Shown: one piece after another, positions 46,277-63,695 of the stretch
Numbering within the stretch: position 1 is the stretch's first letter
How the letters are laid out: every line of letters begins with the position of its first letter
Source: Clostridiales bacterium
GTDB taxonomy: Bacteria > Bacillota > Clostridia > Christensenellales > CAG-138
Direction of reading: 5' to 3'
NCBI GenBank assembly: GCA_918244965.1
Contig: CAKJYC010000002.1
Location: 28,197 to 92,196, forward strand
Length of the DNA: 64,000 bases
The notes under the pieces: generated by a model
Told to the model about the DNA's origin: nothing
Database searches by the model: none
What the model saw: only the letters and a program-made list of their open reading frames with translations
Translations under genes and position numbers: made by a program

Positions 46277-46296
<20 letters not shown>
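45868..46296 (+). pseudogene. Truncated paralog (N-terminal ~105 aa only) of the 499-aa lipoprotein at 40490-41989
   Basis: The lipobox LFLAAC and the collinear blocks TP(D/E)E..V..KD, REQ.G.PE, PDT...P.L.VE match the full-length gene. From about 46190 the frame reads through the rpoD terminator hairpin and the rpoD 3' end. Confidence 0.45.
46194..46225 (-). terminator. Rho-independent terminator of the dnaG-rpoD operon
   Basis: 10-bp stem (one mismatch) ggatcgttcc / ggaacggtcc on the - strand, followed by T6. Confidence 0.65.
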
Positions 46297-47710
<1,414 letters not shown>

Positions 47711-47721
47711 GTCCCGTCTCC

Positions 47722-49479: not shown

Positions 49480-49516
49480 CCTCTGTCCTCCTTTCCGCAA
49501 ACATAACAGAAACCGT

Positions 49517-50524
49517 TCAGCTCCAGCTCTTCGGAACGAACAAATGCTCGTAGGTGCTGATCGCGTAGATATCGCTCATGCCGGCGATGAAGTCCGCGAC
49601 CGCCCGTTCCCTGCCTTCGCGTTCAAGCGTCAGGCGGAACTCGTCGTCCAGAAGCTCCGGATGTGAGAAATAGTATTCATACAGCGCGCGCACGACGCCC
49701 TTCGCCTTTCCCTCCTCGCTCTTGGCGAGCGGGTTCAGGTATACGCGATCGAACATGAACTTGCGAAGCACCTTGAACTCCTCGGCAAATTCCGTCGAAA
49801 AGCGGATCTCGCTGCTGTTCCGGCTGTTTTCGATCACGTTGATGATCAGGCTGTTGATGCGCTTTGAATGCGTCGGCCCGAACAGCTCGATGCAGGAGCT
49901 CGGCAGGTCCTCCTCCGAGAGAACGCCGGCACGCATGGCGTCGTCGATGTCGTGATTGATGTAGGCGATGCGATCCGCAAGTGAGACGACCTTGCCCTCT
50001 GTCGTTGCAGGACGGCCGCTGCTGGTGTGATTAACAATGCCGTCGCGCACCTCCCATGTCAGGTTCAGGCCCTTGCCGTCGTATTCCAGCTTTTCCACGA
50101 CGCGCAGGCTCTGCTCGTTGTGCTTGAAGCCGAACGGCAGAAGATCGTTCAGCACATCCTCGCCCGCGTGTCCGAACGGCGTATGGCCGAGGTCATGCCC
50201 CATGGCGATCGCCTCAGCAAGATCCTCGTTGAGCCGCAGCGCACGCGCGATCGTCCGCGCGATCTGCGAAACTTCGAGCGTATGCGTCAGACGCGTGCGG
50301 TAGTGGTCTCCCTTCGGCGCCAAAAACACCTGTGTTTTATGCTTCAGACGGCGAAACGATTTGCTGTGCAGGATGCGGTCGCGGTCACGGACGAAGTCCG
50401 TACGCACAGGACAGGGATCCATCGGAACGTCTCTGCCGTGCGTATTGACCGAAAGCGTCGCATACGGGGAAAGCATCTGTTTCTCCCATTCTTCCCGCAT
50501 TTTTCGGACCGATCCGTCTTCCAT
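49517..50524 (-). CDS. dGTP triphosphohydrolase-like HD-domain protein
   Basis: HSKSFRRLKHKTQVF, RLTHTLEV, GHDLGHTPFGH motifs. Sits immediately upstream of dnaG. Confidence 0.9.
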   Translation of the reverse strand: MEDGSVRKMREEWEKQMLSPYATLSVNTHGRDVPMDPCPVRTDFVRDRDRILHSKSFRRLKHKTQVFLAPKGDHYRTRLTHTLEVSQIARTIARALRLNEDLAEAIAMGHDLGHTPFGHAGEDVLNDLLPFGFKHNEQSLRVVEKLEYDGKGLNLTWEVRDGIVNHTSSGRPATTEGKVVSLADRIAYINHDIDDAMRAGVLSEEDLPSSCIELFGPTHSKRINSLIINVIENSRNSSEIRFSTEFAEEFKVLRKFMFDRVYLNPLAKSEEGKAKGVVRALYEYYFSHPELLDDEFRLTLEREGRERAVADFIAGMSDIYAISTYEHLFVPKSWS

Positions 50525-50660: not shown

Positions 50661-52403
50661 TTATTTGTACAAGCCGCGCTCGGTGTAATGCGTGTGCAGC
50701 AGCTCGTGCGCCTTGTGGCTGTTCGGCTCACCGAGGTAGTCGCGATAGAGCACCTGGACCTCAGGATTCTCATGGCTCTTGCGCAGCGGCATGTTGGCAT
50801 CTTCGCCATACAGGCCTGCCGCACGCTTTGCGCGCAGATCCACGAAGTTGCGAACGTAGCCGGGCTGAATCGGCTGGCCGCCGCCGTTGACGCAGCCGCC
50901 GGGGCACGCCATGACTTCGACGAACTCATACTGCTTCTCGCCGCTCTTGATCATGTCGAGCAGCTTTCTCGCATTCTCGAGGCCGCTGGTGACCGCAACA
51001 CGCACCTTGACGCCGTTGAGATCGTACTCCGCTTCCTTGATGGCTTCGGTGCCGCGGACCGCATGGAAATCGACCTTCTCGAGCGTCTTGCCGGTGACGA
51101 CCTCATATGCGGTACGCAGAGCAGCTTCCATAACGCCGCCGGTCGCGCCGAAGATGTGACCTGCGCCGGACGCCTGGCCGAGCATCGGATCGCAAACCTC
51201 TTCGGGCAGATCCTCGAACTTGATGCCCGCACGACGGATCATGCGCGCAAGCTCGCGGGTCGTAAGGGAAACGTCGACGTCGGGTCTGCCGTCCGTGCCG
51301 AGCTCCGGACGCTGCACCTCAAACTTCTTCGCGGTGCACGGCATGATGGAGACGACGAAGATCTTCTTCGGGTCGATGCCCATCTTCTCGGCATAGTAGG
51401 ACTTGACGAGTGCGCCGAACATGCCCTGCGGCGATTTGCAGGTGGACAGGTTCGGAATGAACTCCGGATAGTAGTGCTCGCAGAACTTGATCCAGCCGGG
51501 GCTGCAGCTCGTGATCAGCGGGAGCTTGCCGCCCTTGGTGAGACGGCTGATCAGCTCGGTGCCTTCCTCCATGATCGTGACGTCAGCAGCGTTGTCGACG
51601 TCAAAGACCTTGTCGAAGCCGAGTCTGCGCAGTGCAGCGATCATCTTGCCCTCGACATTCGTGCCGATCGGCATGCCGAACTCTTCGCCGAGCTGTACGC
51701 GGACGGACGGTGCGGGACCGACGACAACATGCATATCGGGATCGGAGAGCGCCTTCCACACCTTGCCGGTGTCGTCACGCTCGGTGAGCGCGCCGGTCGG
51801 GCAGACGCTGATGCACTGACCGCAGTTGACACAGGACGTAGTGGCCAGCGGCAGATCGAATGCGCTTGCGATATGGGTCTTGAAGCCGCGCTCGTTTGCG
51901 CCGATGACGTTGCAGTGCTGGTTGTACTTGCAGACAGCCACGCAGCGACGGCAAAGGATGCACTTCGAGTTGTCGCGGATGAGGTGGATCGCGGAATCGT
52001 CGATGTCGGGCTCGGTCGGCGCGCCGTCGAACTTATGCGCATCGCAGCCGTATTCCTGAGACAGCGCCTGCAGCTCGCAGTTGCCGCTGCGCACGCAGCT
52101 CAGACAATCCATACGGTGGTTCGACAGCATCAGTTCGAGCGTCATCTTGCGGGATGCGCGAAGCGCGGGCGTGTTCGTCTGCACTTCCATGCCTTCGGCG
52201 ACCTGCATCAGGCACGCAACGGGGTTCGAACGCGCGCCCTTGACCTCGACCACGCACATACGGCACGCGCCGATGGCGTTGATCTGCTTCATGTAGCAAA
52301 GGGTCGGAATCCGGATACCGGCCAGCTCCGCCGCTTCCAGAATCGTGGAACCCGCGGGGACTTCGATCTCCATTCCGTTGATTTTCATTTTAACTGTATC
52401 CAT
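50661..52403 (-). CDS. hydA: [FeFe]-hydrogenase catalytic subunit, M3 architecture (group A, trimeric/bifurcating type HydA/HndD)
   Basis: N-terminal 2Fe-2S fold, His-ligated cluster HRMDCLSCVRSGNC, two ferredoxin CxxCxxCxxxC motifs. H-cluster motifs TSCSPGW, MPCTAKKFE, EVMACPGGCVNGGGQP. Confidence 0.95.
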   Translation of the reverse strand: MDTVKMKINGMEIEVPAGSTILEAAELAGIRIPTLCYMKQINAIGACRMCVVEVKGARSNPVACLMQVAEGMEVQTNTPALRASRKMTLELMLSNHRMDCLSCVRSGNCELQALSQEYGCDAHKFDGAPTEPDIDDSAIHLIRDNSKCILCRRCVAVCKYNQHCNVIGANERGFKTHIASAFDLPLATTSCVNCGQCISVCPTGALTERDDTGKVWKALSDPDMHVVVGPAPSVRVQLGEEFGMPIGTNVEGKMIAALRRLGFDKVFDVDNAADVTIMEEGTELISRLTKGGKLPLITSCSPGWIKFCEHYYPEFIPNLSTCKSPQGMFGALVKSYYAEKMGIDPKKIFVVSIMPCTAKKFEVQRPELGTDGRPDVDVSLTTRELARMIRRAGIKFEDLPEEVCDPMLGQASGAGHIFGATGGVMEAALRTAYEVVTGKTLEKVDFHAVRGTEAIKEAEYDLNGVKVRVAVTSGLENARKLLDMIKSGEKQYEFVEVMACPGGCVNGGGQPIQPGYVRNFVDLRAKRAAGLYGEDANMPLRKSHENPEVQVLYRDYLGEPNSHKAHELLHTHYTERGLYK

Positions 52404-52414
52404 GGTCGCCCTCC

Positions 52415-54208
52415 TTATTTCTTGATGATGGCCGAGAACTTACAGCCTTCCATGCAGGCGCCGCACTTGATGCACTTCGACTGGTCGATGACATGCGGTT
52501 CCTTGACCTTGCCGGTGATCGCGCCTGCGGGGCACTTGCGTGCGCAGAGCGTGCAGCCGCGGCACTTGTCGGGCTGGATCTCATAATGCATGAGGTTCTT
52601 GCAGACGCCCGCCGGGCAGCGCTTTTCGACGACGTGTGCCTCGTACTCGTCGCGGAAATACTTCAGCGTGGACAGAACCGGGTTCGGCGCCGTCTGACCG
52701 AGTGCACACATTGCGTTCGCCTTGATGTAGTTGCACAGCTCCTCCATCTTGTCAAGATCTTCAAGCGTGCCGTTGCCGGACGTGATCTTGTCAAGCATTT
52801 CGAGAAGGCGTCTCGTGCCGATGCGGCACGGGGTGCACTTGCCGCAGCTCTCGTCAACCGTGAAGTCGAGGAAGAAGCGTGCGACGTCGACCATGCACGT
52901 CGTTTCGTCCATGACGATCATACCGCCGGAGCCCATCATGGCGCCGATCTTGATCAGGTTGTCATAGTCGATCGGCAGGTCGAGGTATTCCGCCGGAATG
53001 CAGCCGCCGGACGGACCGCCGGTCTGCACGGCCTTGAACTTCTTGCCGTTCGGGATGCCGCCGCCGATGTCGTAGATGATCTCGCGGAGCGTCGTGCCCA
53101 TCGGGATCTCAACGAGGCCGGTGTTGACGATCTTGCCGCCGAGCGCAAAGACCTTGGTGCCCTTGCTGCGCTCGGTGCCCATGGATGCGAACCACTCGGC
53201 GCCCTTCAGGATGATCTGCGGGATGTTGGCGAGCGTTTCGACGTTGTTGATGATCGTCGGCTGACCGAACAGACCCTTGTTCGCCGGGAACGGGGGCTTG
53301 TTTCTCGGCTCGCCGCGGTTGCCCTCGATGGAGGTCAGAAGCGCGGTCTCTTCGCCGCAGACGAACGCGCCTGCGCCGAGACGAACTTCGATGTCGAAAT
53401 CAAAGCCGGTGCCGAAGATGTCCTTGCCGAGCAGGTTGTATTCACGCGCCTGGCCGATTGCGATCTCAAGACGCTTGACCGCGATCGGGTACTCTGCACG
53501 AACATAGATGAAGCCCTTGTTTGCGCCGATCGCATAGCCTGCGATCGCCATTGCTTCGAGGACTGCATGCGGGTCGCCTTCGAGAACGGAACGGTCCATG
53601 AACGCGCCGGGGTCGCCCTCGTCCGCGTTGCAGACGACGTACTTCTGCGGAACCTTATTGCGCGCCGCGAAGTCCCACTTCATGCCGGTCGGGAAGCCTG
53701 CGCCGCCTCTGCCGCGAAGGCCGGAATCCTTCATGACCTGAATGACTTCTTCCGGGGTCATTTCGGTGAGCACCTTGCCGAGTGCGGCATAGCCGTCCAT
53801 CGCGATGTACTCGTCGATCTGTTCCGGGTTGATGACGCCGCAGTTGCGAAGCGCAACACGCATCTGCGTCTTGTAGAAGCCGGTTTCCTGCAGGGACGGA
53901 ACCTCGACCTTCTCCTCGCCCTCGGTCTCACGATAGACGAGACGATCGACCACACGGCCCTTTAAGAAATGCTCGGAAACGAGTTCGGGAACGTCTTCGA
54001 GCTTGACACGGCTATAGAACGTTCCCTCCGGGTAAACGATCATAACCGGACCCAATGCGCAAAGGCCGAAGCAGCCGGTGCGCACGACCTTTACTTCCTC
54101 AGCAAGGCCGTTTTTTGCGATTTCTTCCTCAAGCGCGTCGGCAATCTTGACGCTGCCGGAAGAGGTACAACCCGTACCGCCGCAAATCAGAACATGCGTG
54201 CGAATCAT
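52415..54208 (-). CDS. hydB: NADH-binding flavoprotein subunit (NuoF-like HydB/HndC) with an N-terminal thioredoxin-like 2Fe-2S domain and C-terminal 2x[4Fe-4S]
   Basis: GRGGAGFPTG, ESCGKCTPCR, and C-terminal CRGCTLCARKCP / CIKCGACMEGC. Confidence 0.95.
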   Translation of the reverse strand: MIRTHVLICGGTGCTSSGSVKIADALEEEIAKNGLAEEVKVVRTGCFGLCALGPVMIVYPEGTFYSRVKLEDVPELVSEHFLKGRVVDRLVYRETEGEEKVEVPSLQETGFYKTQMRVALRNCGVINPEQIDEYIAMDGYAALGKVLTEMTPEEVIQVMKDSGLRGRGGAGFPTGMKWDFAARNKVPQKYVVCNADEGDPGAFMDRSVLEGDPHAVLEAMAIAGYAIGANKGFIYVRAEYPIAVKRLEIAIGQAREYNLLGKDIFGTGFDFDIEVRLGAGAFVCGEETALLTSIEGNRGEPRNKPPFPANKGLFGQPTIINNVETLANIPQIILKGAEWFASMGTERSKGTKVFALGGKIVNTGLVEIPMGTTLREIIYDIGGGIPNGKKFKAVQTGGPSGGCIPAEYLDLPIDYDNLIKIGAMMGSGGMIVMDETTCMVDVARFFLDFTVDESCGKCTPCRIGTRRLLEMLDKITSGNGTLEDLDKMEELCNYIKANAMCALGQTAPNPVLSTLKYFRDEYEAHVVEKRCPAGVCKNLMHYEIQPDKCRGCTLCARKCPAGAITGKVKEPHVIDQSKCIKCGACMEGCKFSAIIKK

Positions 54209-54223
54209 ACTGTCTTTCCTCCG

Positions 54224-54595
54224 TTATCCTTCCACCGCACCGATGGTATATTTTGTGACGGGCTTGCCGCCGATCAAGTGCTCCTTGATAATTTCGGGAA
54301 CCATTTCGGGCTTGACCTTCACATAGGTCACGCGCTCCTTGTCGCCCTCGAACACTTCGACGATCGGCTCAAAGCGGCACATGCCGATGCAGCCGGTCTG
54401 GGTGACGGTCACGCGATCACCGATGTTCTGCTCCGCGACCTGTTCGACGAACGCGTTCAGGACCGGACGCGCGCCTGCCGCGATGCCGCAGGTTGCCATG
54501 CCGACGACCACACGGATCTCGCCGGAGCCTTCGCGAAGAGCGACCTTGTTTTTCATTCTTTCACGAATTTCTGCAAGTTCTTTCAATGATTTCAT
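54224..54595 (-). CDS. Thioredoxin-like [2Fe-2S] ferredoxin (HndB-like)
   Basis: 123 aa. Cys pairs in MATCGIAAGA and TGCIGMCRFEP. Confidence 0.85.
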   Translation of the reverse strand: MKSLKELAEIRERMKNKVALREGSGEIRVVVGMATCGIAAGARPVLNAFVEQVAEQNIGDRVTVTQTGCIGMCRFEPIVEVFEGDKERVTYVKVKPEMVPEIIKEHLIGGKPVTKYTIGAVEG

Positions 54596-54634
54596 GAGTT
54601 TGATCCTTTCATTTGTAGATTTTTCAGAATATCT

Positions 54635-55189
54635 TCAAGCCTCCGAAGCATACTGCTCCGTCAGCATATCCCGGATCCATGCGAGGACTTCGTATTCGTC
54701 AAGCGGTACGTCGTCCCCTAAAACCTGTCGTATCTCGCGCGTGTCGAGTTCGACCGTGCGATCCGGCAGCGTGTGCCGGAAAACAAAATCCGTCTGTGCG
54801 CTTCCGCGAATCAAAAGGATGATGGTGGAGATCACATCGCCGAGCGGCGTGAAATCCAGATGCGTCTTGAAGAACGTCGCGGACGTTTCCGTGCCGCAAT
54901 GCTCCGGATCGACTGCCCTCTCCGTCGAGCGGATGGTAAGCGTGCCCCCCGTCTGTTCCGCCGCCAGCTTCAGAAGCGGGATCCCCATGCCGACCTTGCG
55001 CGTGGTGCGCGTGGTGGAAAACGGATCGACAACGGTTTTCAGAAAGTCCTCCGACATGCCGTAGCCGTTATCCCGGATCGTGATCTTCAGCGTCGTCTCC
55101 GTCTCGTCCAGCAGGATCTCGATGAGCGTCGCTTCGGCGCGGATCGAGTTCTGGGCGATGTCGAGAATGTTCAGACTGAGTTCCTTCAC
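54635..55189 (-). CDS. Stand-alone GHKL/HATPase_c ATP-binding protein
   Basis: N box LNILDIAQNS, G1 RDNGYGM, G2 GMGIPLL. The GTG start at 55189 follows GGGAGGGG and overlaps the PHP gene stop (GTGA). The upstream part of the track ORF is out of context. Confidence 0.75.
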   Translation of the reverse strand: MKELSLNILDIAQNSIRAEATLIEILLDETETTLKITIRDNGYGMSEDFLKTVVDPFSTTRTTRKVGMGIPLLKLAAEQTGGTLTIRSTERAVDPEHCGTETSATFFKTHLDFTPLGDVISTIILLIRGSAQTDFVFRHTLPDRTVELDTREIRQVLGDDVPLDEYEVLAWIRDMLTEQYASEA

Positions 55190-55905
55190 AGTTTCCCCTC
55201 CCGCAGCTTCTGAAACAGTTCGTGCCGCACCGCTTCCGGCGCGGTATCGTCGGTTTCGAGCGTCAGCGTGCCGCCTGCCTCGCCGATCTCCCACAGCCTG
55301 TGCGCATCCGAGCAGACAACGACCGTGCGTCCCTCCGCAAGCTTTCGGTTCTCCCGATCCCGAAGCTCCGCAATGCGAAACACCGGTTCCGGCGGAAATG
55401 TGCCGAGCACAGCCAGCAGTCCGTTTGCGTCGCGGTCGATGTGCGCCGGCCAGCAGACGCCGTGAAATGCTTCGACCAGAGCGGCCGCCGATTCGAGATC
55501 GAGATCCGTTGCGGCGGGCAGAAAGTACGGGTCCTCCCCGATCTGTTCGTCCCGCTCATTCAGGATCGCCTGATCGCCGAAGATCTCCCTGCGATTTTTG
55601 ATCCGCATACGATGCGTCTTGACCTCCGCCCCGAACGCAAGCGCGTCGTCGAGCGTTTCAAACACGCACAGCAGGTGGATATCCTCCGCCGTCGTCAGCT
55701 CCATGCCGGCGATCGGAACGATCCCGTACTCCTCACACGCCTTGAAGAAGGCCGGACAGTTGTCGACCGAATTATGGTCGGTCAGCGCAACGATGCCGAG
55801 CTCGTTCAGGTGCGCCATCCCCGCAATGTTGCAGGGCGTCATGTCCATGTCCCCGCACGGAGACAGACACGAATGCAGATGCAGATCGTAGCCGACCGTC
55901 CTCAT
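55186..55905 (-). CDS. PHP-domain metal-dependent phosphoesterase
   Basis: YDLHLHSCLSPCGD, ALTDHNS, and HLLCVF motifs of the PHP family. Confidence 0.85.
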   Translation of the reverse strand: MRTVGYDLHLHSCLSPCGDMDMTPCNIAGMAHLNELGIVALTDHNSVDNCPAFFKACEEYGIVPIAGMELTTAEDIHLLCVFETLDDALAFGAEVKTHRMRIKNRREIFGDQAILNERDEQIGEDPYFLPAATDLDLESAAALVEAFHGVCWPAHIDRDANGLLAVLGTFPPEPVFRIAELRDRENRKLAEGRTVVVCSDAHRLWEIGEAGGTLTLETDDTAPEAVRHELFQKLREGKL

Positions 55906-56243
55906 TTGAGCAGTGCGCCGACCTCGACGCAGATCTCAAATGTGGACTTTTCGGACAGCAGCATGTTCAACCCGTGCAGCCTTGCCGCGTTGACCGCAGC
56001 CTCGTCCGGCCGGACGCCCTCGGAAAACACGATGCAAGCGCAGTCTGTCAGCTGACCGACCGCCGCCACGTTCACATTGGACATGATCGTGACCCAGCAG
56101 TCGCCGCTGTCGGCGCGTCCCATGACCCAGCTCAGAAGATCCCCCGCATAGCCTCCGGTGACCTCCCGGTCGCCGTCGGACAGCAGCAGCGGTTCGTATC
56201 CGGTTTTTTCGATCAGTTGGGAAACCGTCATTATCTTTCTCAC
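55902..56243 (-). CDS. DRTGG-domain protein
   Basis: 113 aa. REVTGGYAGDLLSWVM and a CBS-partner-like fold pattern. ATGA overlaps on both sides. Confidence 0.75.
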   Translation of the reverse strand: MRKIMTVSQLIEKTGYEPLLLSDGDREVTGGYAGDLLSWVMGRADSGDCWVTIMSNVNVAAVGQLTDCACIVFSEGVRPDEAAVNAARLHGLNMLLSEKSTFEICVEVGALLK

Positions 56244-57523
56244 TTTCCGTCGTCGTGCTCCAACTCTCTGAGATGCTCGCGCATGCGAATGACGCAGTCA
56301 TCCAGCTTGGATTCGCCCTTTACGACGTCCTCCGCGTGCGCACGGCACGTCGGCGCGCCGCAGGAGCCGCAGTCCATTCCGGGCAGCAGGTTGCGGATCC
56401 GCTCGATCTCCGACATCATGCGGAACGAACGCATCCGGTCCGCGTCGAGAATCTCCGCCGAGCTGTATTCGCCCGGCTCAACGGTCATGAATTCACGCGG
56501 GATCGGTTCGTCGTCGGTCAATACGACGTGGTTCTGCGCGACCGGCATATACCGCTGCAGCGAGCGAATGCGCACGCGTGCGATATACGGGTTCTCGACC
56601 GCCATGACGCCGCCGACGCAGCCGCCGGGACATGCGTTCATCTCGACGAATTTCAGATCGGGGAAATGTCCCATTTCGATGTCGTCGAGCACGCGGATGA
56701 TGTTCTCAATGCCGTCCGCCGCCAGATAGTGATCGTTCATGAGCGCGCTTGCCTCGCCGCCGGACGACGACCAGCTCATGCCGATCATGCCGGATTCGGA
56801 GGTAATTTCGGGAACCTTTGCGCGGTCCATTTTGGACAGGACCCGGAAATAGATATCGCTCATGGAGACCACGTAATCCACGTAGCACTCCTTATCCGCG
56901 GGCGTATTCTTGACCCAGCTGACCTTCGCGGGACACGGGGAGATGAACACGGTTTTGATCTCGTCGGGCTTCAGTTCCGGATGCTCCTTCAGTGCGCGCT
57001 CCTTTGCGAGCTTGCCCGCCACCTCGATGGGCGGCGAGATCGGGACCATCTTGTTCCGGAGCGTCGGGAACCGCAGCGAAATGAGCCGTACCACGACCGG
57101 ACATGCCGTGCTGATGAACGGCGCATGCGCCATTCCCTTGCGCTTCATGTACGTCCGGGTGTAGTCCGTAACGATCTCCGCGGCCTTCGCGACCTCAAAC
57201 ACATCGTCAAAGCCGAGATTCTTGAGTCCCTGCAGCAGGTAGTCCGTATCGTCCAGATTGGCAAACTGACCGAAGATCGAGGGCGCGGGGAGCGCGATCA
57301 GATACTTCGAGTGATCGATCGAATCCCATTCGTCGAAGCTCGCGCGCTTCGCCTTATACGGGCAATGGCGGATGCATTCGCCGCAGTCGATGCACAGCTG
57401 CGGATTGATACAAGCCTTTCCGTCGCGAATGCGGATCGCCTGCGTAGGACAGCGGCGCAAGCAGGTGGTACACCCCTTGCACTTTGCCGGGTCAAGCGAA
57501 ACGGAATGCTTGTATACGATCAT
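56240..57523 (-). CDS. Sensor-like [FeFe]-hydrogenase paralog (H-cluster domain without the proton-relay Cys), with an N-terminal 2x[4Fe-4S] ferredoxin and a C-terminal CxxCxxxxC Fe-S domain
   Basis: CKGCTTCLRRCP / CIDCGECIRHCP. H-domain motifs STACPVV (Ala-Cys instead of Cys-Cys), SPCPAK, EMNACPGGCVGG. C-terminal MDCGSCGAPTCRAHAEDV. Confidence 0.88.
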   Translation of the reverse strand: MIVYKHSVSLDPAKCKGCTTCLRRCPTQAIRIRDGKACINPQLCIDCGECIRHCPYKAKRASFDEWDSIDHSKYLIALPAPSIFGQFANLDDTDYLLQGLKNLGFDDVFEVAKAAEIVTDYTRTYMKRKGMAHAPFISTACPVVVRLISLRFPTLRNKMVPISPPIEVAGKLAKERALKEHPELKPDEIKTVFISPCPAKVSWVKNTPADKECYVDYVVSMSDIYFRVLSKMDRAKVPEITSESGMIGMSWSSSGGEASALMNDHYLAADGIENIIRVLDDIEMGHFPDLKFVEMNACPGGCVGGVMAVENPYIARVRIRSLQRYMPVAQNHVVLTDDEPIPREFMTVEPGEYSSAEILDADRMRSFRMMSEIERIRNLLPGMDCGSCGAPTCRAHAEDVVKGESKLDDCVIRMREHLRELEHDDGK

Positions 57524-57532
57524 GCTTCCTCC

Positions 57533-57961
57533 TTATGCCGACTTGAATTTCATCTCGATCGTCGTGCCGACGCCGACGACGGAATCGATCTTGAGCTCAT
57601 CCGAATACCGTTTCATGTTCGGCAGGCCCATGCCTGCTCCGAAGCCGAGCGAACGGATGTTGTCCGGCGCGGTCGAATATCCCTCCTGCATGGCAAGATT
57701 GATATCCTTGATACCGGGGCCGACGTCCTTCAGAATCACCGTGATGCAGTCCGGCGTAACATACACATCCGCATCCCCGCCCTTTGCGTGGATGACCATG
57801 TTGATCTCGCCTTCGTACATCGCAACGGAGATCCTGCGGATCAGATCGGGATGGTATCCCATCTGCCGGAGCGTCCGTTTGACCTGTACCGAAGCCTCGC
57901 CTGCGGACGTGAAGTTGTTTCCGTCCACATCGTAGTGGAAATGGAGCGCGTCGCCTGTCAT
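57533..57961 (-). CDS. Anti-sigma-factor-like Ser/Thr kinase (SpoIIAB/RsbW-type GHKL ATPase)
   Basis: 142 aa. EGEINMVIHA (N box), DVGPGI (G1), GFGAGMGLPN (G2). The ATG at 57961 overlaps the upstream DRTGG stop (ATGA). Confidence 0.8.
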   Translation of the reverse strand: MTGDALHFHYDVDGNNFTSAGEASVQVKRTLRQMGYHPDLIRRISVAMYEGEINMVIHAKGGDADVYVTPDCITVILKDVGPGIKDINLAMQEGYSTAPDNIRSLGFGAGMGLPNMKRYSDELKIDSVVGVGTTIEMKFKSA

Positions 57962-58296
57962 CGTCCCAAACCGCCTTCGTACAGTCTGCCGCTCGCCTCG
58001 TACATCGTCATCTGGGTCTCCATCAGAACGATGTCGTTTTGCGCGGCGAGGGTTTTGATCTCCGGCGTTGCGGTCTTTCCGCGAACGATGATAATGCACT
58101 GCATGTCAAGCATATGCGCCGTACGCACGATCTGCGGGTTCAAAAGCCCGGTCAGAAGCACGTCGCGATTCTCCGCAAACGCAAGCACGTCGCTCATCAT
58201 GTCGCTGCCGAACGCGCCGGTCAGATCCTCGTCCAGCCGATCGGGATCGGCGTATACGACTGCATTGATTCGTTCGGCGATCTCCCGGATTGTCAT
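57958..58296 (-). CDS. DRTGG-domain protein
   Basis: 112 aa. DVLLTGLLNPQIVRTA...IIIVRGK pattern. Second copy of this domain in the operon. Confidence 0.75.
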   Translation of the reverse strand: MTIREIAERINAVVYADPDRLDEDLTGAFGSDMMSDVLAFAENRDVLLTGLLNPQIVRTAHMLDMQCIIIVRGKTATPEIKTLAAQNDIVLMETQMTMYEASGRLYEGGLGR

Positions 58297-58312
58297 ACCT
58301 GCTTCCTTTCGA

Positions 58313-58810
58313 TTATGCGCGGAATTTGTCTACGATGCCCTTGACGTCGGCGGGAACGAGCCGACCGAAAACGTCGTCATCCACCGTCATGACCGGAGCG
58401 AGGCCGCAGCAGCCAAGGCAGCGCGTCGCTTCGAGCGTGAACTTACCGTCCGGCGTGGTGTGGCCGGCCTTGATGCCGAGCTGACGTTCGAGCTCTGCAA
58501 GGATATCTGCAGATCCCTTGACGTAGCACGCGGTACCGAGACAGACGCGGATCAGGTGCTCGCCCTTCGGTTCGAGCGTGAACCACGAATAGAACGTGGA
58601 AACGCCGTACACCTGCTCAAGCGATACGCCGAGTCCTTCGGCGACCATCGTCTGCACTTCGATCGGCAGATAGCCGTAGATCTCCTGCGCCTTCTGGAGC
58701 ACAGGCATCATTGCGTCGCTGTGGCCCTTATGCTGTGCAATGACCTCTTTCAGTTGGGCTTCCTGTTCGGGCGTACCCCGGAACGGGATTTCGGTAATTT
58801 TGTTCGTCAT
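58313..58810 (-). CDS. hydC: NuoE-like [2Fe-2S] subunit (HydC/HndA)
   Basis: CLGTACYVKG and CLGCCGLAP cluster motifs, with a thioredoxin-like fold pattern. Confidence 0.93.
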   Translation of the reverse strand: MTNKITEIPFRGTPEQEAQLKEVIAQHKGHSDAMMPVLQKAQEIYGYLPIEVQTMVAEGLGVSLEQVYGVSTFYSWFTLEPKGEHLIRVCLGTACYVKGSADILAELERQLGIKAGHTTPDGKFTLEATRCLGCCGLAPVMTVDDDVFGRLVPADVKGIVDKFRA

Positions 58811-58848
58811 ACATCCTCCTTAATAGAATAGATTCTTGACCATCGAAT

Positions 58849-58877
58849 ATTATAGCATACCGTTCCCGCAATTTCCA
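58849..58877 (-). promoter_or_regulatory. Candidate promoter with extended -10 for the hydrogenase operon
   Basis: On the - strand, TGGAAA-17 nt-TGcTATAAT, 38 nt upstream of the hydC ATG. AAGGAGGATG RBS. Confidence 0.35.
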
Positions 58878-59052
58878 TATCTTTTTCACACATCTTTTCT
58901 TATATTTTGCATTTCTTTGGGCTTACGGCGGACTCTTCATAAAAATTCCGCAAAAATTTAGCAAAAAATTCGATTTGCGGGCTTTTCTTTTTGCGCGAAA
59001 TCGTGTATGATAGGTATACGCAAAGGAATATCTTTATGGAAGGAGATTCTTT

Positions 59053-59934
59053 ATGGCAAAGAAACTCAAATTCAAGCCCACACCCGCCGGGATCATGTTC
59101 CTGTCCGCGATCGCCGTTCTGCTGATCGCGATCATCATTATTACGATCGTGCTGGCAAAGAACTGCAGCAAAAACAGATCGAACGATCCGACGCCTGCCA
59201 GTGAGCAGCCGGTCGAAAGCACCGAGTCCACGATCGAGCCGACCAAGGAGGCTTCCCTCACTACGCCCGATCCGCTGGACACGCCCGATCCGGACGCAAC
59301 GATTGATCCTGATGCGACGATCGATCCGAACGCGACCGTCAATCCCAGCGACACCTCCGGCCCCGGCCCGATCGTGATCACCACACCCGGAACCTCGCCG
59401 GCCAGTTCCGCATCGCCGGGCACCAGCGCTTCGCCGAGTCCTTCCTATTACACTACGCCGACCTCGCACATGAAGAACCATTCGCAGAAGGGCTACGTCA
59501 ATGCGGACAGCGTCAACATGCGCGCAGAACCTAAGAAGACCGCAAAGGTCGTCACTTCCAAGATCCCGAAGTATACGGCCGTCACGCTCTATGTCGAGCA
59601 GGAGGGCTGGTGGTTCTTGAAGTGCGGCGATAAGTACGGCTACATCATCGGTGACTACATCACCAAGGGCACCGCACCCGCCGAAGCCGGCGACGGCAGC
59701 GCTACCGGCAAGGTTGCCGTCCAGAACGACAACGTCATCGCGCTCCGCAAGGGCCCCGGCAAGAGCTACACCTGCATCAAGGAGTACAAGAACGGTACCG
59801 AGGTCACCGTCTACCATTCCGAAAAGGATAAGGACGGCAGAAAGTGGTACTACGTCAAGACGCCCGACGGCAAGAAGGGCTACATGTTTGCAAGCTACGT
59901 GAAGATCACCAAGGGCAAGGTCCCCGCAAAGTAA
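59053..59934 (+). CDS. Membrane-anchored protein with two bacterial SH3-like domains
   Basis: One N-terminal TM helix. P/T/D/S-rich linker with a DPDATI pentapeptide-type repeat. Two YVNADSVNMRAEP / VQNDNVIALRKGPG SH3_3-like units, each ending in GY(I/M) motifs. Confidence 0.85.
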   Translation: MAKKLKFKPTPAGIMFLSAIAVLLIAIIIITIVLAKNCSKNRSNDPTPASEQPVESTESTIEPTKEASLTTPDPLDTPDPDATIDPDATIDPNATVNPSDTSGPGPIVITTPGTSPASSASPGTSASPSPSYYTTPTSHMKNHSQKGYVNADSVNMRAEPKKTAKVVTSKIPKYTAVTLYVEQEGWWFLKCGDKYGYIIGDYITKGTAPAEAGDGSATGKVAVQNDNVIALRKGPGKSYTCIKEYKNGTEVTVYHSEKDKDGRKWYYVKTPDGKKGYMFASYVKITKGKVPAK

Positions 59935-60126: not shown

Positions 60127-60618
60127 TTACGCTGTCCTTCCCGATTGCATAAGATACCCTTCATGAACAGCCGCTGCCGTTGCAACGGCACAGATGACCG
60201 CTGCGCCGTATTGAAAATCGATACATGCAAGCGTCAGCGGGAAAACGAACAGCAGCGCTCCGGTCACCCTGTTCATCACGGAATGCACCGTCAGAAACGC
60301 TTTTTGCCGGATATATCCGGCTGCAATGTTCGCCGCCTTTATGAAAGCGATGACGGCGATCCATACATAGAGCCATATCGGAACATCCAGTACCGGCAGT
60401 AGTTTTATGAGGCATGCCGCAGCGAATACGATATCCGCAGCCGTATCGAGCCTTGCGCCGAACGCGCTGACCGTACCGGTCTTCCTTGCCACGGCGCCGT
60501 CGATCATATCGGTGATTCCGGCAGCGATATACAGCGCATAGAACGTCGGCGAGAATGCCGGAAAAAACAGCAAAGCGGCGCTGAGGACGATTCTGCTGCC
60601 GGTGACAGCATTTGCCAT
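60127..60618 (-). CDS. CDP-alcohol phosphatidyltransferase family protein (small, PgsA-like)
   Basis: Full signature D-x2-DG-x2-AR-x8-G-x3-D-x3-D in DMIDGAVARKTGTVSAFGARLDTAAD. Five to six hydrophobic helices. Confidence 0.88.
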   Translation of the reverse strand: MANAVTGSRIVLSAALLFFPAFSPTFYALYIAAGITDMIDGAVARKTGTVSAFGARLDTAADIVFAAACLIKLLPVLDVPIWLYVWIAVIAFIKAANIAAGYIRQKAFLTVHSVMNRVTGALLFVFPLTLACIDFQYGAAVICAVATAAAVHEGYLMQSGRTA

Positions 60619-60619
60619 T

Positions 60620-60982
60620 TTACATCGGCGTCCCCACTTCGATCAGATTCCCGTCCGGATCGTAAAAGCGTATGACCCTCTGTCCCCAGCTGTGCGTCAT
60701 GAGCCTGTTGACGTATTTTACTTCCGGATAATACTGTTCAAGCCTTTCGATAAAACGATCCAGGTCGGATTCCTCAAAATAAAGCTCGCAAGAGTTGTTC
60801 TCCGGAATGATATCTTTTCCTAGGAACTCCTTCCAGTATGTCTCCTCCTGAAGAACCAATCCATCCGTCAGGACCATATTTCCGTCATTGTCAAGAATCG
60901 TCTCAAGGCCGAACAGATCCCGGTAGAACCGTCGGGATCTCTCAATATCTTTCACGACGATCAGCACATTTTTCAGTTTCAT
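60620..60982 (-). CDS. VOC-family (glyoxalase/bleomycin-resistance fold) protein
   Basis: 120 aa. VVKDIERSRRFYRDLFGLE N-terminal beta-alpha-beta-beta-beta motif and C-terminal FYDPDGNLIEV. Confidence 0.88.
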   Translation of the reverse strand: MKLKNVLIVVKDIERSRRFYRDLFGLETILDNDGNMVLTDGLVLQEETYWKEFLGKDIIPENNSCELYFEESDLDRFIERLEQYYPEVKYVNRLMTHSWGQRVIRFYDPDGNLIEVGTPM

Positions 60983-61170
60983 CGTTTTCCCCTTTTCACA
61001 CCCAATATCTCCGATCCTGCCGAAAAGCCGGAATCGTCAGTATCGGTCTCCGTATTCCTTCCGTGCTTCCGCCGCCCGTTTCAGGACAACGGTCGACCCG
61101 GTATCCGCACAAGCATGATTCAATCAGTCCCTGCCGTATACGGTCTGCTCTTTTTGCGACGGGCTGACCG

Positions 61171-62145
61171 TTATGCAAGGTTCTCCGGCTTGAGATAGCC
61201 GGAAAGCAGCGTGCGCAGGGCGTTGAACGCGTCCATACCGTTTTCGGGCATGGCCTCGGAGCTGACGCGGTACAGGCACCCTTCCTCGTCGAATCTGACG
61301 ACATGGATCGCGCCGTCGAGCGATTCGGGATTTTCAAGGCTGTTCCAGCCGTTCATGCCGGCCTCATAGATGATGCGCAGCGCTTCGTTCAGGACGTCCT
61401 TCGGCACGCGGTAGCGCGTTACGCGTTCGTCGGCCTTGCCGCCGTCGACGTACTCCTCCAGCAACAGCAGCTCTTCGCCGTCGTCATAGAGCACCAGCTC
61501 ATAATAGCCGTCCTCTTTCCCGTCGACCGGCTCCGTCGCCACGGCCTTTGTGTAATAATCGACCTTCAGGACCGGCTCGGCCGCCGAAATGTTCCTTGCG
61601 GCGACCGTAACCGTGACGTCCTCAGCGGGCATCACGAACGCAAAGTACAGATAGTCGCTGTCCGGTCCGGAGGTCTGCTGCACCGGTTCGCCGTTCACGA
61701 AAACCTCGGTGATCTCGTCAAAAACCGGATGCAGCTGCAGCGTCACCGTTTCGCCCGGATAAGCCCATTCCGGCGGATCGACGATCTGCAGCTTGCCGCT
61801 TTCATACACGATCTGATACCGCATTGCCATCATATCACTCCCTCCGAGAGAAAACTCCACCCTGACGTCGTGCGCGGGCATTGTAAACGCATAGACCAGA
61901 TAATCGTAGCCGTCCACGCGCGGCGAAAGACGTTCGCCGTCGACAGTGACCGTCGGGGACGCGTCCATGACGATATAGGTTTTCAGCTCGACGCGCTCAC
62001 CCGCCGCATAGGCGTCCTTTGCGTCAATGAACGCGCCCTTGTTGGCGTATTCGATCTTGTACAGTTCTTTCTTTGTGCATCCGAACAGCATCGTCATCAC
62101 CAGCAGCGCAATCAGCGCAAGGATCGGAATTCGTTTTGTACGCAT
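61171..62145 (-). CDS. Lipoprotein of unknown function with an internal domain duplication
   Basis: Lipobox LVMTMLFGCT. Two ~60-aa repeats end in YAFTMPAHDVRVEF and FAFVMPAEDVTVTV. Confidence 0.75.
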   Translation of the reverse strand: MRTKRIPILALIALLVMTMLFGCTKKELYKIEYANKGAFIDAKDAYAAGERVELKTYIVMDASPTVTVDGERLSPRVDGYDYLVYAFTMPAHDVRVEFSLGGSDMMAMRYQIVYESGKLQIVDPPEWAYPGETVTLQLHPVFDEITEVFVNGEPVQQTSGPDSDYLYFAFVMPAEDVTVTVAARNISAAEPVLKVDYYTKAVATEPVDGKEDGYYELVLYDDGEELLLLEEYVDGGKADERVTRYRVPKDVLNEALRIIYEAGMNGWNSLENPESLDGAIHVVRFDEEGCLYRVSSEAMPENGMDAFNALRTLLSGYLKPENLA

Positions 62146-62157
62146 CGTCGTGTCCTC

Positions 62158-62604
62158 TCAAAGATCGGACAGGCGGTACAGCGCGTCCGGGTTCTTCTTG
62201 GGCTCCCTGAGATGCAGGATCTGCGCGTCCTTGAAGCGCTCCTTGAGCTTTACCGTCGCCTTCGGCGCGTCGCCGCTGCCGGAATACAGCACAAACGTCA
62301 GCTTCTTGCCGTCGAACACCGTTTCCTTCAAGGCCGTATTAATCGGGCAGGACAGCCGCCCGTTCCAGATCGGCGAGCCGATCACGATCTCATCATATGC
62401 GGACACGTCGGCGTCGTAATTCTTCAGGGGTTCGCAGTAATTGCGGCCCGCATTGAAGCCGCACTTCATGATCTGAAAGAAGAACGCCTTCGGCGGTTTC
62501 TTTGCCGATTCGACCTTGCGGACGTCATACCCCTTCTCCCTGAGCTTATCCGCGACCGCGTCGCCGTTTCCGGAAAGGCTGTAATAGAGGAACAGCTTTT
62601 TCAT
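62158..62604 (-). CDS. Flavodoxin-family protein
   Basis: MKKLFLYYSLSGNG phosphate-binding loop pattern and IVIGSPIWNG. Confidence 0.85.
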   Translation of the reverse strand: MKKLFLYYSLSGNGDAVADKLREKGYDVRKVESAKKPPKAFFFQIMKCGFNAGRNYCEPLKNYDADVSAYDEIVIGSPIWNGRLSCPINTALKETVFDGKKLTFVLYSGSGDAPKATVKLKERFKDAQILHLREPKKNPDALYRLSDL

Positions 62605-63695
62605 GCGACCGTCTCCTTTGCCAGCAGGACGAAGTGCATCTCGACCGGGTTGTGGTCGGAATACGCAAACTGCGTGTCGATGACGTCGGCAAACATTACC
62701 TCTACGTTGTTCGTCACAAGGAAGCCGTCGATCGTCAGCGTATACTGCCCCTCGTGATACGGACCGTCGGCGTTGCGGCAGCTCGGAACCGGGTTGCTAT
62801 CGTCGAGCGGCGCGGCAAGCATGACGCTGTAGCCGTCGAACATGCCGTCCGGGATCGGCTGCGCCCATGTGTATTCCTGATCGGCCTTGCCGAAATACTT
62901 CGAGGAATCGCCGAGCAGGTCCTTGTTGAAGTCGCCGCCCGCGATGCAGTAATTGCCCTTTTCATATTCGGCCTGCATGTCGTCGAGCAGCAGCTTCAGC
63001 TGATCGTTTGCGATCTTGCCGTCGGAGGTATAGGCGGACAGATGCAGGTTGTACAGAACGAGCTGGTCGCCACTCGCAAGCGGGATGCGGTTCTTGCTGT
63101 AGCAGCGGTCGAGGTCGAGGAATTTCGTGAGTCCCGTTTCGATCGGCAGCTCGATGCGCTCACCGGAGGCGATCGGCGCAGTCGAGAAGGTCAGAAGGCC
63201 CGAACGCGACTTGCCGTGCGGCTGGAAGATCGGATAGAACAGGAACGGCGAATCGTAGTTCTGCGCGAACGTGTAGGAATTGCCGGAGAGCGCGCCGACA
63301 AGATACGTGCGCTCGTCGACATGATAGCTGCGGGTCGAGTTGATGTCGACCTCCTGCACGATCGTCAGGTCGGCGTTCTGTTCCTTCAGAAACGCTGCGA
63401 TATTCAGGAGGTTCTTGTCGAGCCGTTCCTTCGACCACGCCCACGAACGGTCGCCGCCGTCCATGAAGAAGCCGAAGTCGGATTCGTACGCGCCGAAGCC
63501 GATGTTGTACGAGACGATCTTGTATTCCTCGCCGGTCGTCAACGTGCCGGTCGCAGTTCCTTCGGCGGTCAGCGTCTGATTGCCGATGCGGTGGTAGCTG
63601 AGGAATACATAGGCGAAGTAGCCGACGCCGATCAGCAGGACGACCGCAAGGACGATCGCCGTGATCTTGAGGATCTTTTTCAATACTTTTTTCAT
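62601..63695 (-). CDS. Membrane-anchored endonuclease/exonuclease/phosphatase (EEP) family protein
   Basis: N-terminal TM helix. VSYNIG, LTIVQEVD and YSDHNPV motifs. ATGA overlap with the flavodoxin gene. Confidence 0.85.
   Translation of the reverse strand: MKKVLKKILKITAIVLAVVLLIGVGYFAYVFLSYHRIGNQTLTAEGTATGTLTTGEEYKIVSYNIGFGAYESDFGFFMDGGDRSWAWSKERLDKNLLNIAAFLKEQNADLTIVQEVDINSTRSYHVDERTYLVGALSGNSYTFAQNYDSPFLFYPIFQPHGKSRSGLLTFSTAPIASGERIELPIETGLTKFLDLDRCYSKNRIPLASGDQLVLYNLHLSAYTSDGKIANDQLKLLLDDMQAEYEKGNYCIAGGDFNKDLLGDSSKYFGKADQEYTWAQPIPDGMFDGYSVMLAAPLDDSNPVPSCRNADGPYHEGQYTLTIDGFLVTNNVEVMFADVIDTQFAYSDHNPVEMHFVLLAKETVA

Follow-up and report, generated by a model that had tools for sequence, protein, structure and literature searches.

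Conserved DRTGG, GHKL and PHP genes surround a putative sensory group D [FeFe] hydrogenase within a bifurcating hydrogenase operon of a Clostridiales bacterium

The 64,000-nucleotide stretch of DNA analysed here, hereafter the window (Clostridiales bacterium, contig CAKJYC010000002.1, positions 28,197 to 92,196 of the forward strand), contains ten consecutive minus-strand genes (50661–58810) which form one apparent operon, as judged from the open reading frame (ORF) list, Pfam matches and a reading of the reverse complement of positions 54150–59000. The gene order is hydC, DRTGG1, GHKL1, HydS, DRTGG2, PHP, GHKL2, HydD-like, hydB, hydA; HydS is a putative sensory paralogue of the catalytic hydrogenase HydA, and the remaining names denote DRTGG-domain proteins, GHKL-type ATP-binding proteins, a PHP-family phosphoesterase, and a thioredoxin-fold protein. 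Our best reading, to which we assign a probability of roughly 55%, is that HydS and its accessory proteins form an H2- or redox-responsive regulatory complex which would act on the adjacent bifurcating enzyme. The window copy is an unremarkable example of a gene set that is known, widespread and as yet unexplained in its mechanism; it brings nothing new in kind, and it is the comparative work which makes the open question experimentally concrete. Electron-bifurcating hydrogenases set the H2/NADH/ferredoxin balance in anaerobes that live by fermentation or syntrophy, from those of guts, rumen and digesters to biofuel strains, and the sensing of H2 and tuning of these enzymes is an acknowledged gap.

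HydS (56240–57523, minus strand; 427 aa) lies on the same strand, and in the same apparent operon, as the group A genes hydC, hydB and hydA. It comprises two N-terminal [4Fe–4S] motifs (Fer4), an H-domain (Fe_hyd_lg_C, E=2.8e-33), and a C-terminal Cx2Cx4Cx16C Fe–S domain (PF04060, E=1.9e-13). In an alignment with the Desulfovibrio enzyme (DdH) and 38 diverse relatives (39 family members in all), the H-cluster cysteine ligands C141, C197, C298 and C302 (CpI C300, C355, C499 and C503) are invariant in 39/39; they are located in the motifs STACP (A140, C141), SPCPAK (C197, K200) and ACPGGCVGG (C298, C302). The position of the proton-relay cysteine (CpI C299) is occupied by A140, and across the family by A, T, S, F, N or others, never by Cys. 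The residue corresponding to CpI M353 is S195 (Ser or Thr in 34/39), that corresponding to M497 is N296, and the lysine three residues after C197 (K200), present in the window protein, is kept in 24 of the 39. The N-terminal Fer4 matches span residues 8–58, with C15, C21, C25, C44, C47, C50 and C54 invariant and C18 present in 35/39, whilst the C-terminal ligand set (C385-x2-C388-x4-C393-x16-C410) is invariant throughout. Neither Pfam nor NCBIfam detects a PAS domain in HydS, which ends 17 residues past its last cysteine.

By sequence, HydS is a group D (M2e) protein on every criterion set out by Land et al. 2020 (PMC8163306). An earlier annotation of this DNA (the sequence-only reading) had listed the ACP, PCPAK and CPGGC motifs, the alanine in place of the relay cysteine, and the C-terminal Fe–S domain, all of which are present; its proposal that the paralogue is of sensory rather than catalytic type is supported by Ala at C299, Ser at M353, the Cx2Cx4Cx16C motif, the lack of a PAS domain, and the group A neighbour. 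Within group D, TamHydS from Thermoanaerobacter mathranii is the one protein for which H-cluster binding and reaction with H2 are demonstrated; its affinity for H2 is high, its turnover low and its tolerance of CO unusual, and it is regarded as putatively sensory (PMC8163306). The family is large, with more than 8000 clusters at 90% identity (E<=1e-20) and 405 clusters at 50% identity (E<=1e-30). The window protein is 98% identical to proteins of uncultured Clostridia metagenome-assembled genomes (MAGs), and at most 64% identical to the best of the 80 listed species-representative loci described below. A sequence search of the PDB returned no solved group C or D hydrogenase and no close homologue of any accessory protein.

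The association of HydS with its small neighbours is most directly seen in natural fusions. Nine of the best 150 representatives of the HydS family at 50% identity carry extra domains: in six, a DRTGG domain is fused approximately 12 residues after the C-terminal Fe–S domain; in two, a DRTGG domain is located at the N-terminus; and in one, a GHKL1-type domain is at the N-terminus. Profile scoring assigns the N-terminal DRTGG domains to the DRTGG1 type and the C-terminal ones to the DRTGG2 type, or leaves them ambiguous, such that the order of the fused domains is the order of the genes in the window. We considered whether the fusions could be assembly errors and rejected this, given their many cluster members, long contigs, a named isolate, and independent NCBI and JGI contigs: the HydS::DRTGG2 form (533 aa) has 80 cluster members on many contigs of up to 515 kb; the GHKL1::HydS form (607 aa) has five full-length cluster members and one of 609 aa, on contigs of up to 347 kb; the DRTGG1::HydS form (534 aa) includes the named isolate; and a 545-aa HydS fusion occurs on both NCBI and JGI contigs. 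No other available evidence speaks as strongly for physical binding of DRTGG1, GHKL1 and DRTGG2 to HydS as the fusions, together with the match between fused order and gene order; they name these three proteins as candidate HydS binding partners. With conserved synteny, they suggest that the accessory genes form a coherent unit with HydS.

The conservation of gene order was examined by scanning species-representative genomes with the HydS family alignment; the best 80 of more than 597 matches were taken, all from Oscillospirales-type MAGs (gut/rumen) with 52–64% HydS identity. The ORFs of these 80 loci were searched with the ten window proteins, and ten further look-ups of distant family representatives were made (92 loci counted in total). 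The window gene order is the rule in the best 80 loci, 39 of which are complete, most others being cut by contig ends. GHKL1 is directly upstream of HydS in 82/84 loci and a DRTGG gene is upstream in 80/84; a DRTGG gene lies directly downstream of HydS in 78/81, the PHP gene is present in 79/81, and GHKL2 and the HydD-like gene are both present in 59/61. The counts are dominated by one clade, and it is the distant loci which show the depth of conservation: the full set is kept at 28–31% HydS identity (L089, L090 and L091). The comparison of gene neighbourhoods that the sequence-only reading had proposed thus finds the set and its order recurring in approximately 90 independent loci, down to 28% HydS identity, which is not chance. 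Five loci in the scan have a variant order in which DRTGG1, GHKL1, HydS, DRTGG2 and PHP precede HydC, GHKL2, HydD-like, HydB and HydA; the arrangement HydS, DRTGG2, PHP, HydC, GHKL2, HydD, HydB, HydA is named in L011, L023, L033, L058, L082 and L090. The location of the sensor genes between hydC and the hydD-like gene is the window's only local peculiarity, yet it is the standard order in its clade.

Three irregular loci were recorded. In the distant locus L090 (9662–13542) a second HydC-like/HydB-like pair is inserted between hydB and hydA; in L070 (57–1382) a full-length HydS homologue lies near a contig start, and the 6 kb downstream of it lacks all of the usual genes; and in L020 (1639–2448) an extra partial HydS-like ORF lies approximately 6 kb upstream of the normal cluster.

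Distant loci also place the set beside enzymes with other catalytic subunits. In L091 (8213–19341) the full DRTGG1–GHKL1–HydS–DRTGG–PHP–GHKL2 set, with its [FeFe]-type sensor, precedes a NiFe-HydABCSL-like operon which contains HydC, HydD-like, HydB, a HydA-like protein without the H-domain, FlpD, and NiFe small and large subunits, with Hdr-like genes upstream. A reduced DRTGG1–GHKL1–HydS trio adjoins a molybdopterin formate-dehydrogenase-type enzyme in L088 (3–7629). L092 (122–9552) has the full set ahead of an FdhA-type relative; its GHKL1 carries an N-terminal CBS pair, and HydS is followed by two DRTGG-like genes. The presence of the same sensor set with [NiFe] and formate-dehydrogenase relatives points to the bifurcating module that they share as the thing being regulated.

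GHKL1 (57533–57961, minus strand; 142 aa, starting at ATG 57961) is similar in size to SpoIIAB and matches HATPase_c_2 (E=2.2e-8). Its best PDB relative is SpoIIAB (1th8, E=9e-7), and its closest solved relatives are SpoIIAB and RsbW. Over 84 homologues, its N-box (E50, E52, N54, H58), G1 box (D79-x-G-x-G83) and G2 box (G106–G112) are at least 95% conserved; the catalytic and ligand residues of GHKL2 and the PHP protein are likewise at least 95% conserved. In its domain, best structural match and intact boxes GHKL1 fits the description of a SpoIIAB/RsbW-like putative kinase, but it scores well under the cut-off of the SpoIIAB family model, and the STAS, PP2C and sigma partners that would accompany such a kinase are absent.

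DRTGG1 (57958–58296, minus strand; 112 aa) is a single-domain protein whose match to PF07085 (E=2.9e-5) falls just below the Pfam cut-off. Its AlphaFold2 (AF2) model (pLDDT 94.6) matches, in Foldseek, the DRTGG folds of AF1212 (2ioj, TM 0.79) and of a CBS-pyrophosphatase (3l31, TM 0.78); the N-terminal domain of HPr kinase is also matched, less well. DRTGG2 (55902–56243, minus strand; approximately 110 aa, starting at GTG 56243, which overlaps the HydS stop, or ATG 56231) has a weak DRTGG match (E=0.005), is clearly homologous to DRTGG1 by jackhmmer and alignment, and yet is a distinct subtype; a joint profile of the two matches 2ioj at E=3e-4. The DRTGG1 subtype has conserved TG-x-N-x-Q-xx-RT and V-R-G-K loops and keeps the basic loop residues R58, R72 and K74, whereas the DRTGG2 subtype carries GDLLSWVM and W-x-TIM-x-N without those basic residues. 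Both proteins are thus DRTGG proteins as first annotated, DRTGG1 by its fold model and DRTGG2 by homology to DRTGG1. DRTGG2 holds the position, right after the C-terminal Fe–S domain, that a PAS domain occupies in group C HydS.

The PHP protein (55186–55905, minus strand; 239 aa, its ATG overlapping the DRTGG2 stop) was correctly recognised as a PHP phosphoesterase: it matches PF02811, and its predicted metal ligands H9, H11, D43, H44, E69, H77, H155, D200 and H202 (HxH...DH...E...H...H...DxH) are either invariant or conserved to at least 95%. Among proteins of solved structure it comes closest to RNase AM (7ug9), EndoQ, 3e0f, Cv1693 (2yb1) and TM0559, with E-values of 1e-7 to 1e-5 and chiefly across the N-terminal 80–100 residues, such that by sequence it resembles nucleotide or nucleic-acid phosphoesterases rather than the known PHP protein phosphatases.

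GHKL2 (54635–55189, minus strand; 184 aa, its start GTG 55189 overlapping the PHP stop) is an orphan Bergerat-fold ATPase matching HATPase_c (E=1.6e-12), which bears out its description as a second GHKL ATPase, and HATPase_c_3. It consists of an ATP-binding domain with intact motifs and a conserved C-terminal alpha/beta domain of approximately 85 residues, for which no sequence match was found; D10 and N14 are invariant, the Asp being located four residues before the N-box Asn. By sequence, its highest-scoring relatives are the histidine-kinase CA (catalytic and ATP-binding) domains, and in Foldseek comparisons of its AF2 model (pLDDT 88.6) such domains cover only approximately the first 105 residues; the best whole-length matches are N-terminal fragments of MutL/PMS2 (TMq approximately 0.53).

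The HydD-like protein (54224–54595, minus strand; 123 aa; assigned by Pfam and conservation) was termed a 2Fe–2S ferredoxin in the sequence-only reading. A small thioredoxin-fold gene is indeed found before hydB, but its product has only three cysteines (C36, C69, C73), compared with four in thioredoxin-like [2Fe–2S] proteins. A 17-residue block (R28–L46) is at least 95% conserved in 77 homologues, and, of the sequences with a solved structure, the best matches are N-terminal domains that NuoF-like B subunits carry in other bifurcating enzymes (8oh5_B, E=1.7e-21; 9bov_B; 9n5u_B; 7t2r_B). GHKL2 sits between hydC and the hydD-like gene in the variant loci and after PHP in the window. GHKL2 and HydD-like appear to be a second unit, belonging with the NuoE/NuoF-type module rather than with the sensor core; this separation is a product of the comparison. 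The 'six-gene module' proposed earlier is hence a conserved set as claimed, and is better described as two units, a five-gene sensor core (DRTGG1–GHKL1–HydS–DRTGG2–PHP) and GHKL2.

The preferred mechanism has four steps. First, HydS would bind an H-cluster and report H2 or redox state rather than carry flux, as its group D sequence membership and the published properties of TamHydS suggest. Secondly, HydS would be held in a complex with DRTGG1, GHKL1 and DRTGG2, for which strict adjacency, translational coupling and, above all, the natural fusions argue; the sensor core would thus be DRTGG1–GHKL1–HydS–DRTGG2. Thirdly, GHKL1 may function as a SpoIIAB-type ATP-binding switch or serine kinase which responds to the state of HydS, and may act on, or be held by, a DRTGG protein in a STAS-like role, with the PHP metallo-phosphoesterase resetting the system; we infer this switching step, and it is the weakest of the four. 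Fourthly, the output would not be a transcription factor encoded in the operon, and would most probably be directed at the NuoE/NuoF-type bifurcating enzyme encoded alongside, by way of its activity or assembly; GHKL2 and HydD-like, which both travel with hydC and hydB, may lie on the route to the enzyme as the second unit. Direct control of the enzyme is favoured over transcriptional control since the set contains no DNA-binding genes and accompanies [FeFe], [NiFe] and formate-dehydrogenase versions of the enzyme family.

Several observations weigh against this reading. Exposure of TamHydS to 1 atm H2 leaves its C-terminal cluster unreduced, which is said to challenge earlier ideas on signal transduction (2026, PMC13104023). 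GHKL1 scores 57 bits against the NCBIfam SpoIIAB model TIGR01925 (E=1.7e-15), compared with a cut-off of 135, and no accessory protein reaches a curated NCBIfam cut-off. The Foldseek matches of the DRTGG1 model include no STAS structures, the DRTGG fold being distinct from STAS. Ser35 of DRTGG1 and Ser38 of DRTGG2 were considered as specific phospho-acceptors, and this proposal is weakened because, in the alignment, the conserved Ser falls on the generic 'AMS' Ser of AF1212 and so gives no specific indication of a phospho-acceptor. A search of solved structures gave no CpsB/YwqE-type match (PHP protein phosphatase) for the PHP protein. GHKL2, which has no His-containing dimerisation domain, looks, from its model, at least as MutL/Hsp90-like as kinase-like. 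The synteny counts are dominated by the one clade of 80 loci. Finally, TamHydS is flanked by an AraC-family regulator (PMC8163306), such that some species may have an output at the level of transcription.

A serious rival, albeit one that we consider unlikely, is transcriptional output by way of an unlinked sigma factor or regulator. On this account GHKL1 would be a true anti-sigma factor/kinase, a DRTGG protein its antagonist and PHP the phosphatase, and H2 sensed by HydS would alter transcription of the hyd genes, perhaps also of fermentation genes. The kinship of GHKL1 to SpoIIAB and RsbW, its conserved N, G1 and G2 boxes, and the AraC-family neighbour of TamHydS all favour it; regulation of transcription had already been suggested by earlier authors, who drew a parallel with Ralstonia (PMC3492117), and the NADH-dependent hydrogenase activity of Thermoanaerobacter tengcongensis is, according to a citation in that paper, fourfold lower at high H2. 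Against this, no sigma, STAS or DNA-binding domain is found in the ten operon products, nor between DRTGG1 and hydA in those distant loci that were annotated with Pfam; conservation of the neighbourhood does not extend to the rpoD gene downstream of hydA, and the DRTGG fold is unrelated to STAS.

A second alternative, somewhat less probable again, is that GHKL2, PHP, the DRTGG proteins and HydD-like assemble, mature, repair or re-activate the NuoE/NuoF-type module, with HydS supplying low-rate H2-derived electrons or a checkpoint. The full-length alignment of the GHKL2 model with MutL/PMS2 N-terminal fragments, the Asp four residues before the N-box Asn, and the HATPase_c_3 match are all consistent with such a role, as is the observation that GHKL2 and HydD-like stay with hydC and hydB whichever catalytic subunit is used ([FeFe], [NiFe] or Fdh). 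The Acetobacterium woodii authors left 'assembly or signalling' open (PMC3315566), and hisK and hydD of the Acetomicrobium mobile operon are outside the holoenzyme (PMC9304861). However, the TMq is only approximately 0.5 and by sequence GHKL2 is closest to histidine-kinase CA domains; the HydS active site has sensor features, in keeping with the published sensor behaviour of high H2 affinity, low rate and CO tolerance (PMC8163306); and fusions of a SpoIIAB-like protein to HydS are left unexplained.

That HydS is a second, slow catalytic hydrogenase sharing HydBC, with the small genes as passengers or a nucleotide-handling set, is improbable: TamHydS does catalyse reversible H+/H2 interconversion (PMC8163306), nucleotides or nucleic acids are the substrates of the PHP protein's relatives, and CBS domains (adenine-nucleotide binders) are fused to GHKL1 in L092, but the proton-relay Cys is absent across the family, the set is kept together to 28% identity with three of its members found fused to HydS, which is unlike passengers, and it also accompanies enzymes with a non-[FeFe] catalytic subunit.

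The neighbourhood itself was known beforehand. Carere et al. 2012 and Land et al. 2020 record M2e HydS beside kinase-like genes, upstream of bifurcating hydrogenases (PMC3561251, PMC8163306). In the former, the M2e gene is located five genes upstream of the first listed A1 TR(M3) bifurcating hydrogenase gene, with 'protein kinases' between, in Caldicellulosiruptor, Caldanaerobacter (TTE0887 with TTE0892–0894), Clostridium thermocellum (Cthe_0335 with Cthe_0340–0342), Clostridium phytofermentans and Thermoanaerobacter (PMC3561251), in agreement with the earlier statement that comparable neighbourhoods occur in thermophilic Firmicutes. The five-gene spacing fits the variant order seen here, the matching of locus tags to genes being inferred from spacing alone; the tables of that paper name only the hydrogenase genes and 'kinases', with no discussion of the DRTGG and PHP genes. 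As late as 2024, group D was described as functionally undefined (PMC11216029), and a 2026 study calls the identification of group D HydS interaction partners critical and still to come (PMC13104023). Our full-text literature searches returned no paper tying DRTGG proteins to hydrogenases or giving signalling chemistry, and those on partner switching with HydS or on TamHydS signalling partners returned nothing relevant; the earlier view that no biochemistry is published for the DRTGG/GHKL/PHP set thus agrees with the literature found, in which its output chemistry is not described.

What is new here is the gene order in approximately 90 loci, the three kinds of HydS fusion, the [NiFe] and formate-dehydrogenase contexts, the non-STAS model of DRTGG1, the resemblance of the PHP protein, and the association of GHKL2 with hydC/hydD and its MutL-type model match. 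A further-reaching reading, which we consider less likely than not, is that DRTGG1, GHKL1, DRTGG2 and PHP with a group D HydS could constitute an undescribed signalling device, in which DRTGG would replace STAS/PAS and PHP would replace PP2C, and which would pass a post-translational H2/redox signal to NuoE/NuoF-type bifurcating enzymes ([FeFe], [NiFe] or formate dehydrogenase) with GHKL2 and HydD receiving it. If so, the natural fusion proteins name the HydS partners that the field calls missing.

The remaining operon genes encode the enzyme proper. The product of hydC (58313–58810, minus strand; 165 aa) is a NuoE-like thioredoxin-type [2Fe–2S] subunit (PF01257, E=4.7e-53) with an AGGAGG ribosome-binding site before its ATG; that of hydB (52415–54208, minus strand; 597 aa) is a NuoF-like FMN/NAD(H) subunit (Complex1_51K, E=1e-48; NADH_4Fe-4S, E=5e-36); and that of hydA (50661–52403, minus strand; 580 aa) is a catalytic group A [FeFe] hydrogenase (Fe_hyd_lg_C, E=3.7e-102; Fe_hyd_SSU, Fer2_4, NADH-G_4Fe-4S_3). 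[quoted passage not shown] A sigma-70-like promoter (58849–58877, minus strand; TGGAAA-17-TATAAT with a TG extension, i.e. an extended −10) lies approximately 38 nt upstream of hydC and is the sole strong promoter-like site on the minus strand of the operon, and no terminator-like sites were found on that strand between hydC and hydA. The sensor gene set appears to be co-transcribed with the bifurcating hydrogenase operon.

The six inserted genes are found on the minus strand with the domains and at the coordinates that the sequence-only reading had given them, as confirmed by the ORF list, reading of the sequence, and Pfam; every family it had named for domain searches was found, PF07085 just under the Pfam cut-off for DRTGG1 and weakly for DRTGG2. 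Its tight packing is also evident, with four 4-nt overlaps (ATGA or GTGA) at the DRTGG1/GHKL1, HydS/DRTGG2, DRTGG2/PHP and PHP/GHKL2 junctions. The mechanical ORFs of both GHKL genes begin too early, the true starts being ATG 57961 for GHKL1 and GTG 55189 for GHKL2. Pfam finds no sigma, STAS, receiver or helix-turn-helix domain in any of the ten operon products, again as first reported. Pfam likewise finds no HisKA or Response_reg domain in the operon; both GHKL proteins are ATP-binding domains without HisKA/DHp (dimerisation and histidine phosphotransfer), and a two-component system was rejected for the lack of HisKA and receiver domains.

Other explanations for the region were also discarded. 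Chance or artefact was rejected, as all ten genes have domain support and their order recurs in approximately 90 loci. Plus-strand ORFs of up to 858 aa have no Pfam match and are shadows of high-GC coding sequence (the window G+C is approximately 58%). Anti-phage defence, considered for the combination of GHKL and PHP, has no PADLOC support, with two marginal matches only (BrxP, E=0.009, in the Fer4 region; MzaB, E=0.001, in the GHKL N-box). Directly past hydA (46277–50524, minus strand) lie an HD-domain dGTPase-like gene, dnaG, and the housekeeping rpoD; a functional tie of dgt–dnaG–rpoD to the module was rejected as coincidental because the adjacency is shared with the closest relative (L001) alone and not with other loci. 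Upstream of the operon (59053–59934, plus strand; 60127–63695, minus strand), none of six products is linked to hydrogenase function; Pfam identifies two of them, a protein anchored in the membrane that has bacterial SH3 domains and, encoded on the opposite strand, a CDP-alcohol phosphatidyltransferase, whilst the four others, read from sequence or matching L001 genes, are glyoxalase-like, a lipoprotein without a Pfam match, flavodoxin-like, and of the endonuclease/exonuclease/phosphatase family.

Of the systems known to date, the TamHydS locus is the closest. HydS and TamHydS have the same domain order, both lack the relay Cys, carry a hydroxyl residue at the M353 position and have no PAS domain, and both are encoded beside a GHKL ATPase gene, upstream of or within a bifurcating HydABC operon. 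The loci differ in that the sensor genes of the window interrupt the operon between hydC and the hydD-like gene rather than lying wholly upstream, in that the window has no adjacent AraC-type regulator, and in the M497 position, where HydS has Asn and TamHydS has Leu. The group C (M2f) HydS systems (Thermotoga maritima HydS, Ruminococcus albus HydS, and Thermoanaerobacterium HfsB with the PP2C-type phosphatase HfsC) share the sensor-type H-domain, the same C-terminal Fe–S domain, and the tie to Ser/Thr phospho-signalling proteins and hydrogenase genes. Group C has a fused PAS domain and PP2C phosphatases, whereas the window has neither: a DRTGG protein stands at the PAS position (fused in other lineages), and the phosphoesterase is of PHP type.

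The SpoIIAB–SpoIIAA–SpoIIE and RsbW–RsbV–RsbU systems resemble the window in having a GHKL kinase-type protein of approximately 140 aa with intact ATP-binding motifs, an overlapping gene for a small alpha/beta partner, and a phosphoesterase nearby. They differ in that the partner in the window is a DRTGG and not a STAS protein, the phosphoesterase is PHP and not PP2C, there is no sigma factor, and GHKL1 falls under the family cut-offs. Membership of canonical partner switching was rejected on the lack of STAS, PP2C and a sigma factor in the operon; because three of its four defining parts are absent, the SpoIIAB analogy describes a possible working and not membership.

In Ralstonia eutropha, the regulatory [NiFe] hydrogenase HoxBC works with the PAS histidine kinase HoxJ and the regulator HoxA. 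The likeness lies in a low-activity hydrogenase and a kinase-family protein which report H2 to control other hydrogenases; the sensor there is an unrelated [NiFe] enzyme, and HoxJ and HoxA are a true PAS histidine kinase and response regulator, whereas the window has no HisKA, receiver or DNA-binding domain.

Lastly, A. woodii 'HydE' (Awo_c27000) is a histidine-kinase-like protein encoded between hydC and hydD, absent from the purified enzyme and described as 'involved in assembly or signalling' (PMC3315566), and the A. mobile NiFe-Hyd operon has hisK and hydD genes whose products are likewise not part of the holoenzyme (PMC9304861). In the window GHKL2 follows PHP and not hydC; in the variant loci, GHKL2 and the HydD-like gene occupy the same positions as these genes, with which they are equated by position and description only.

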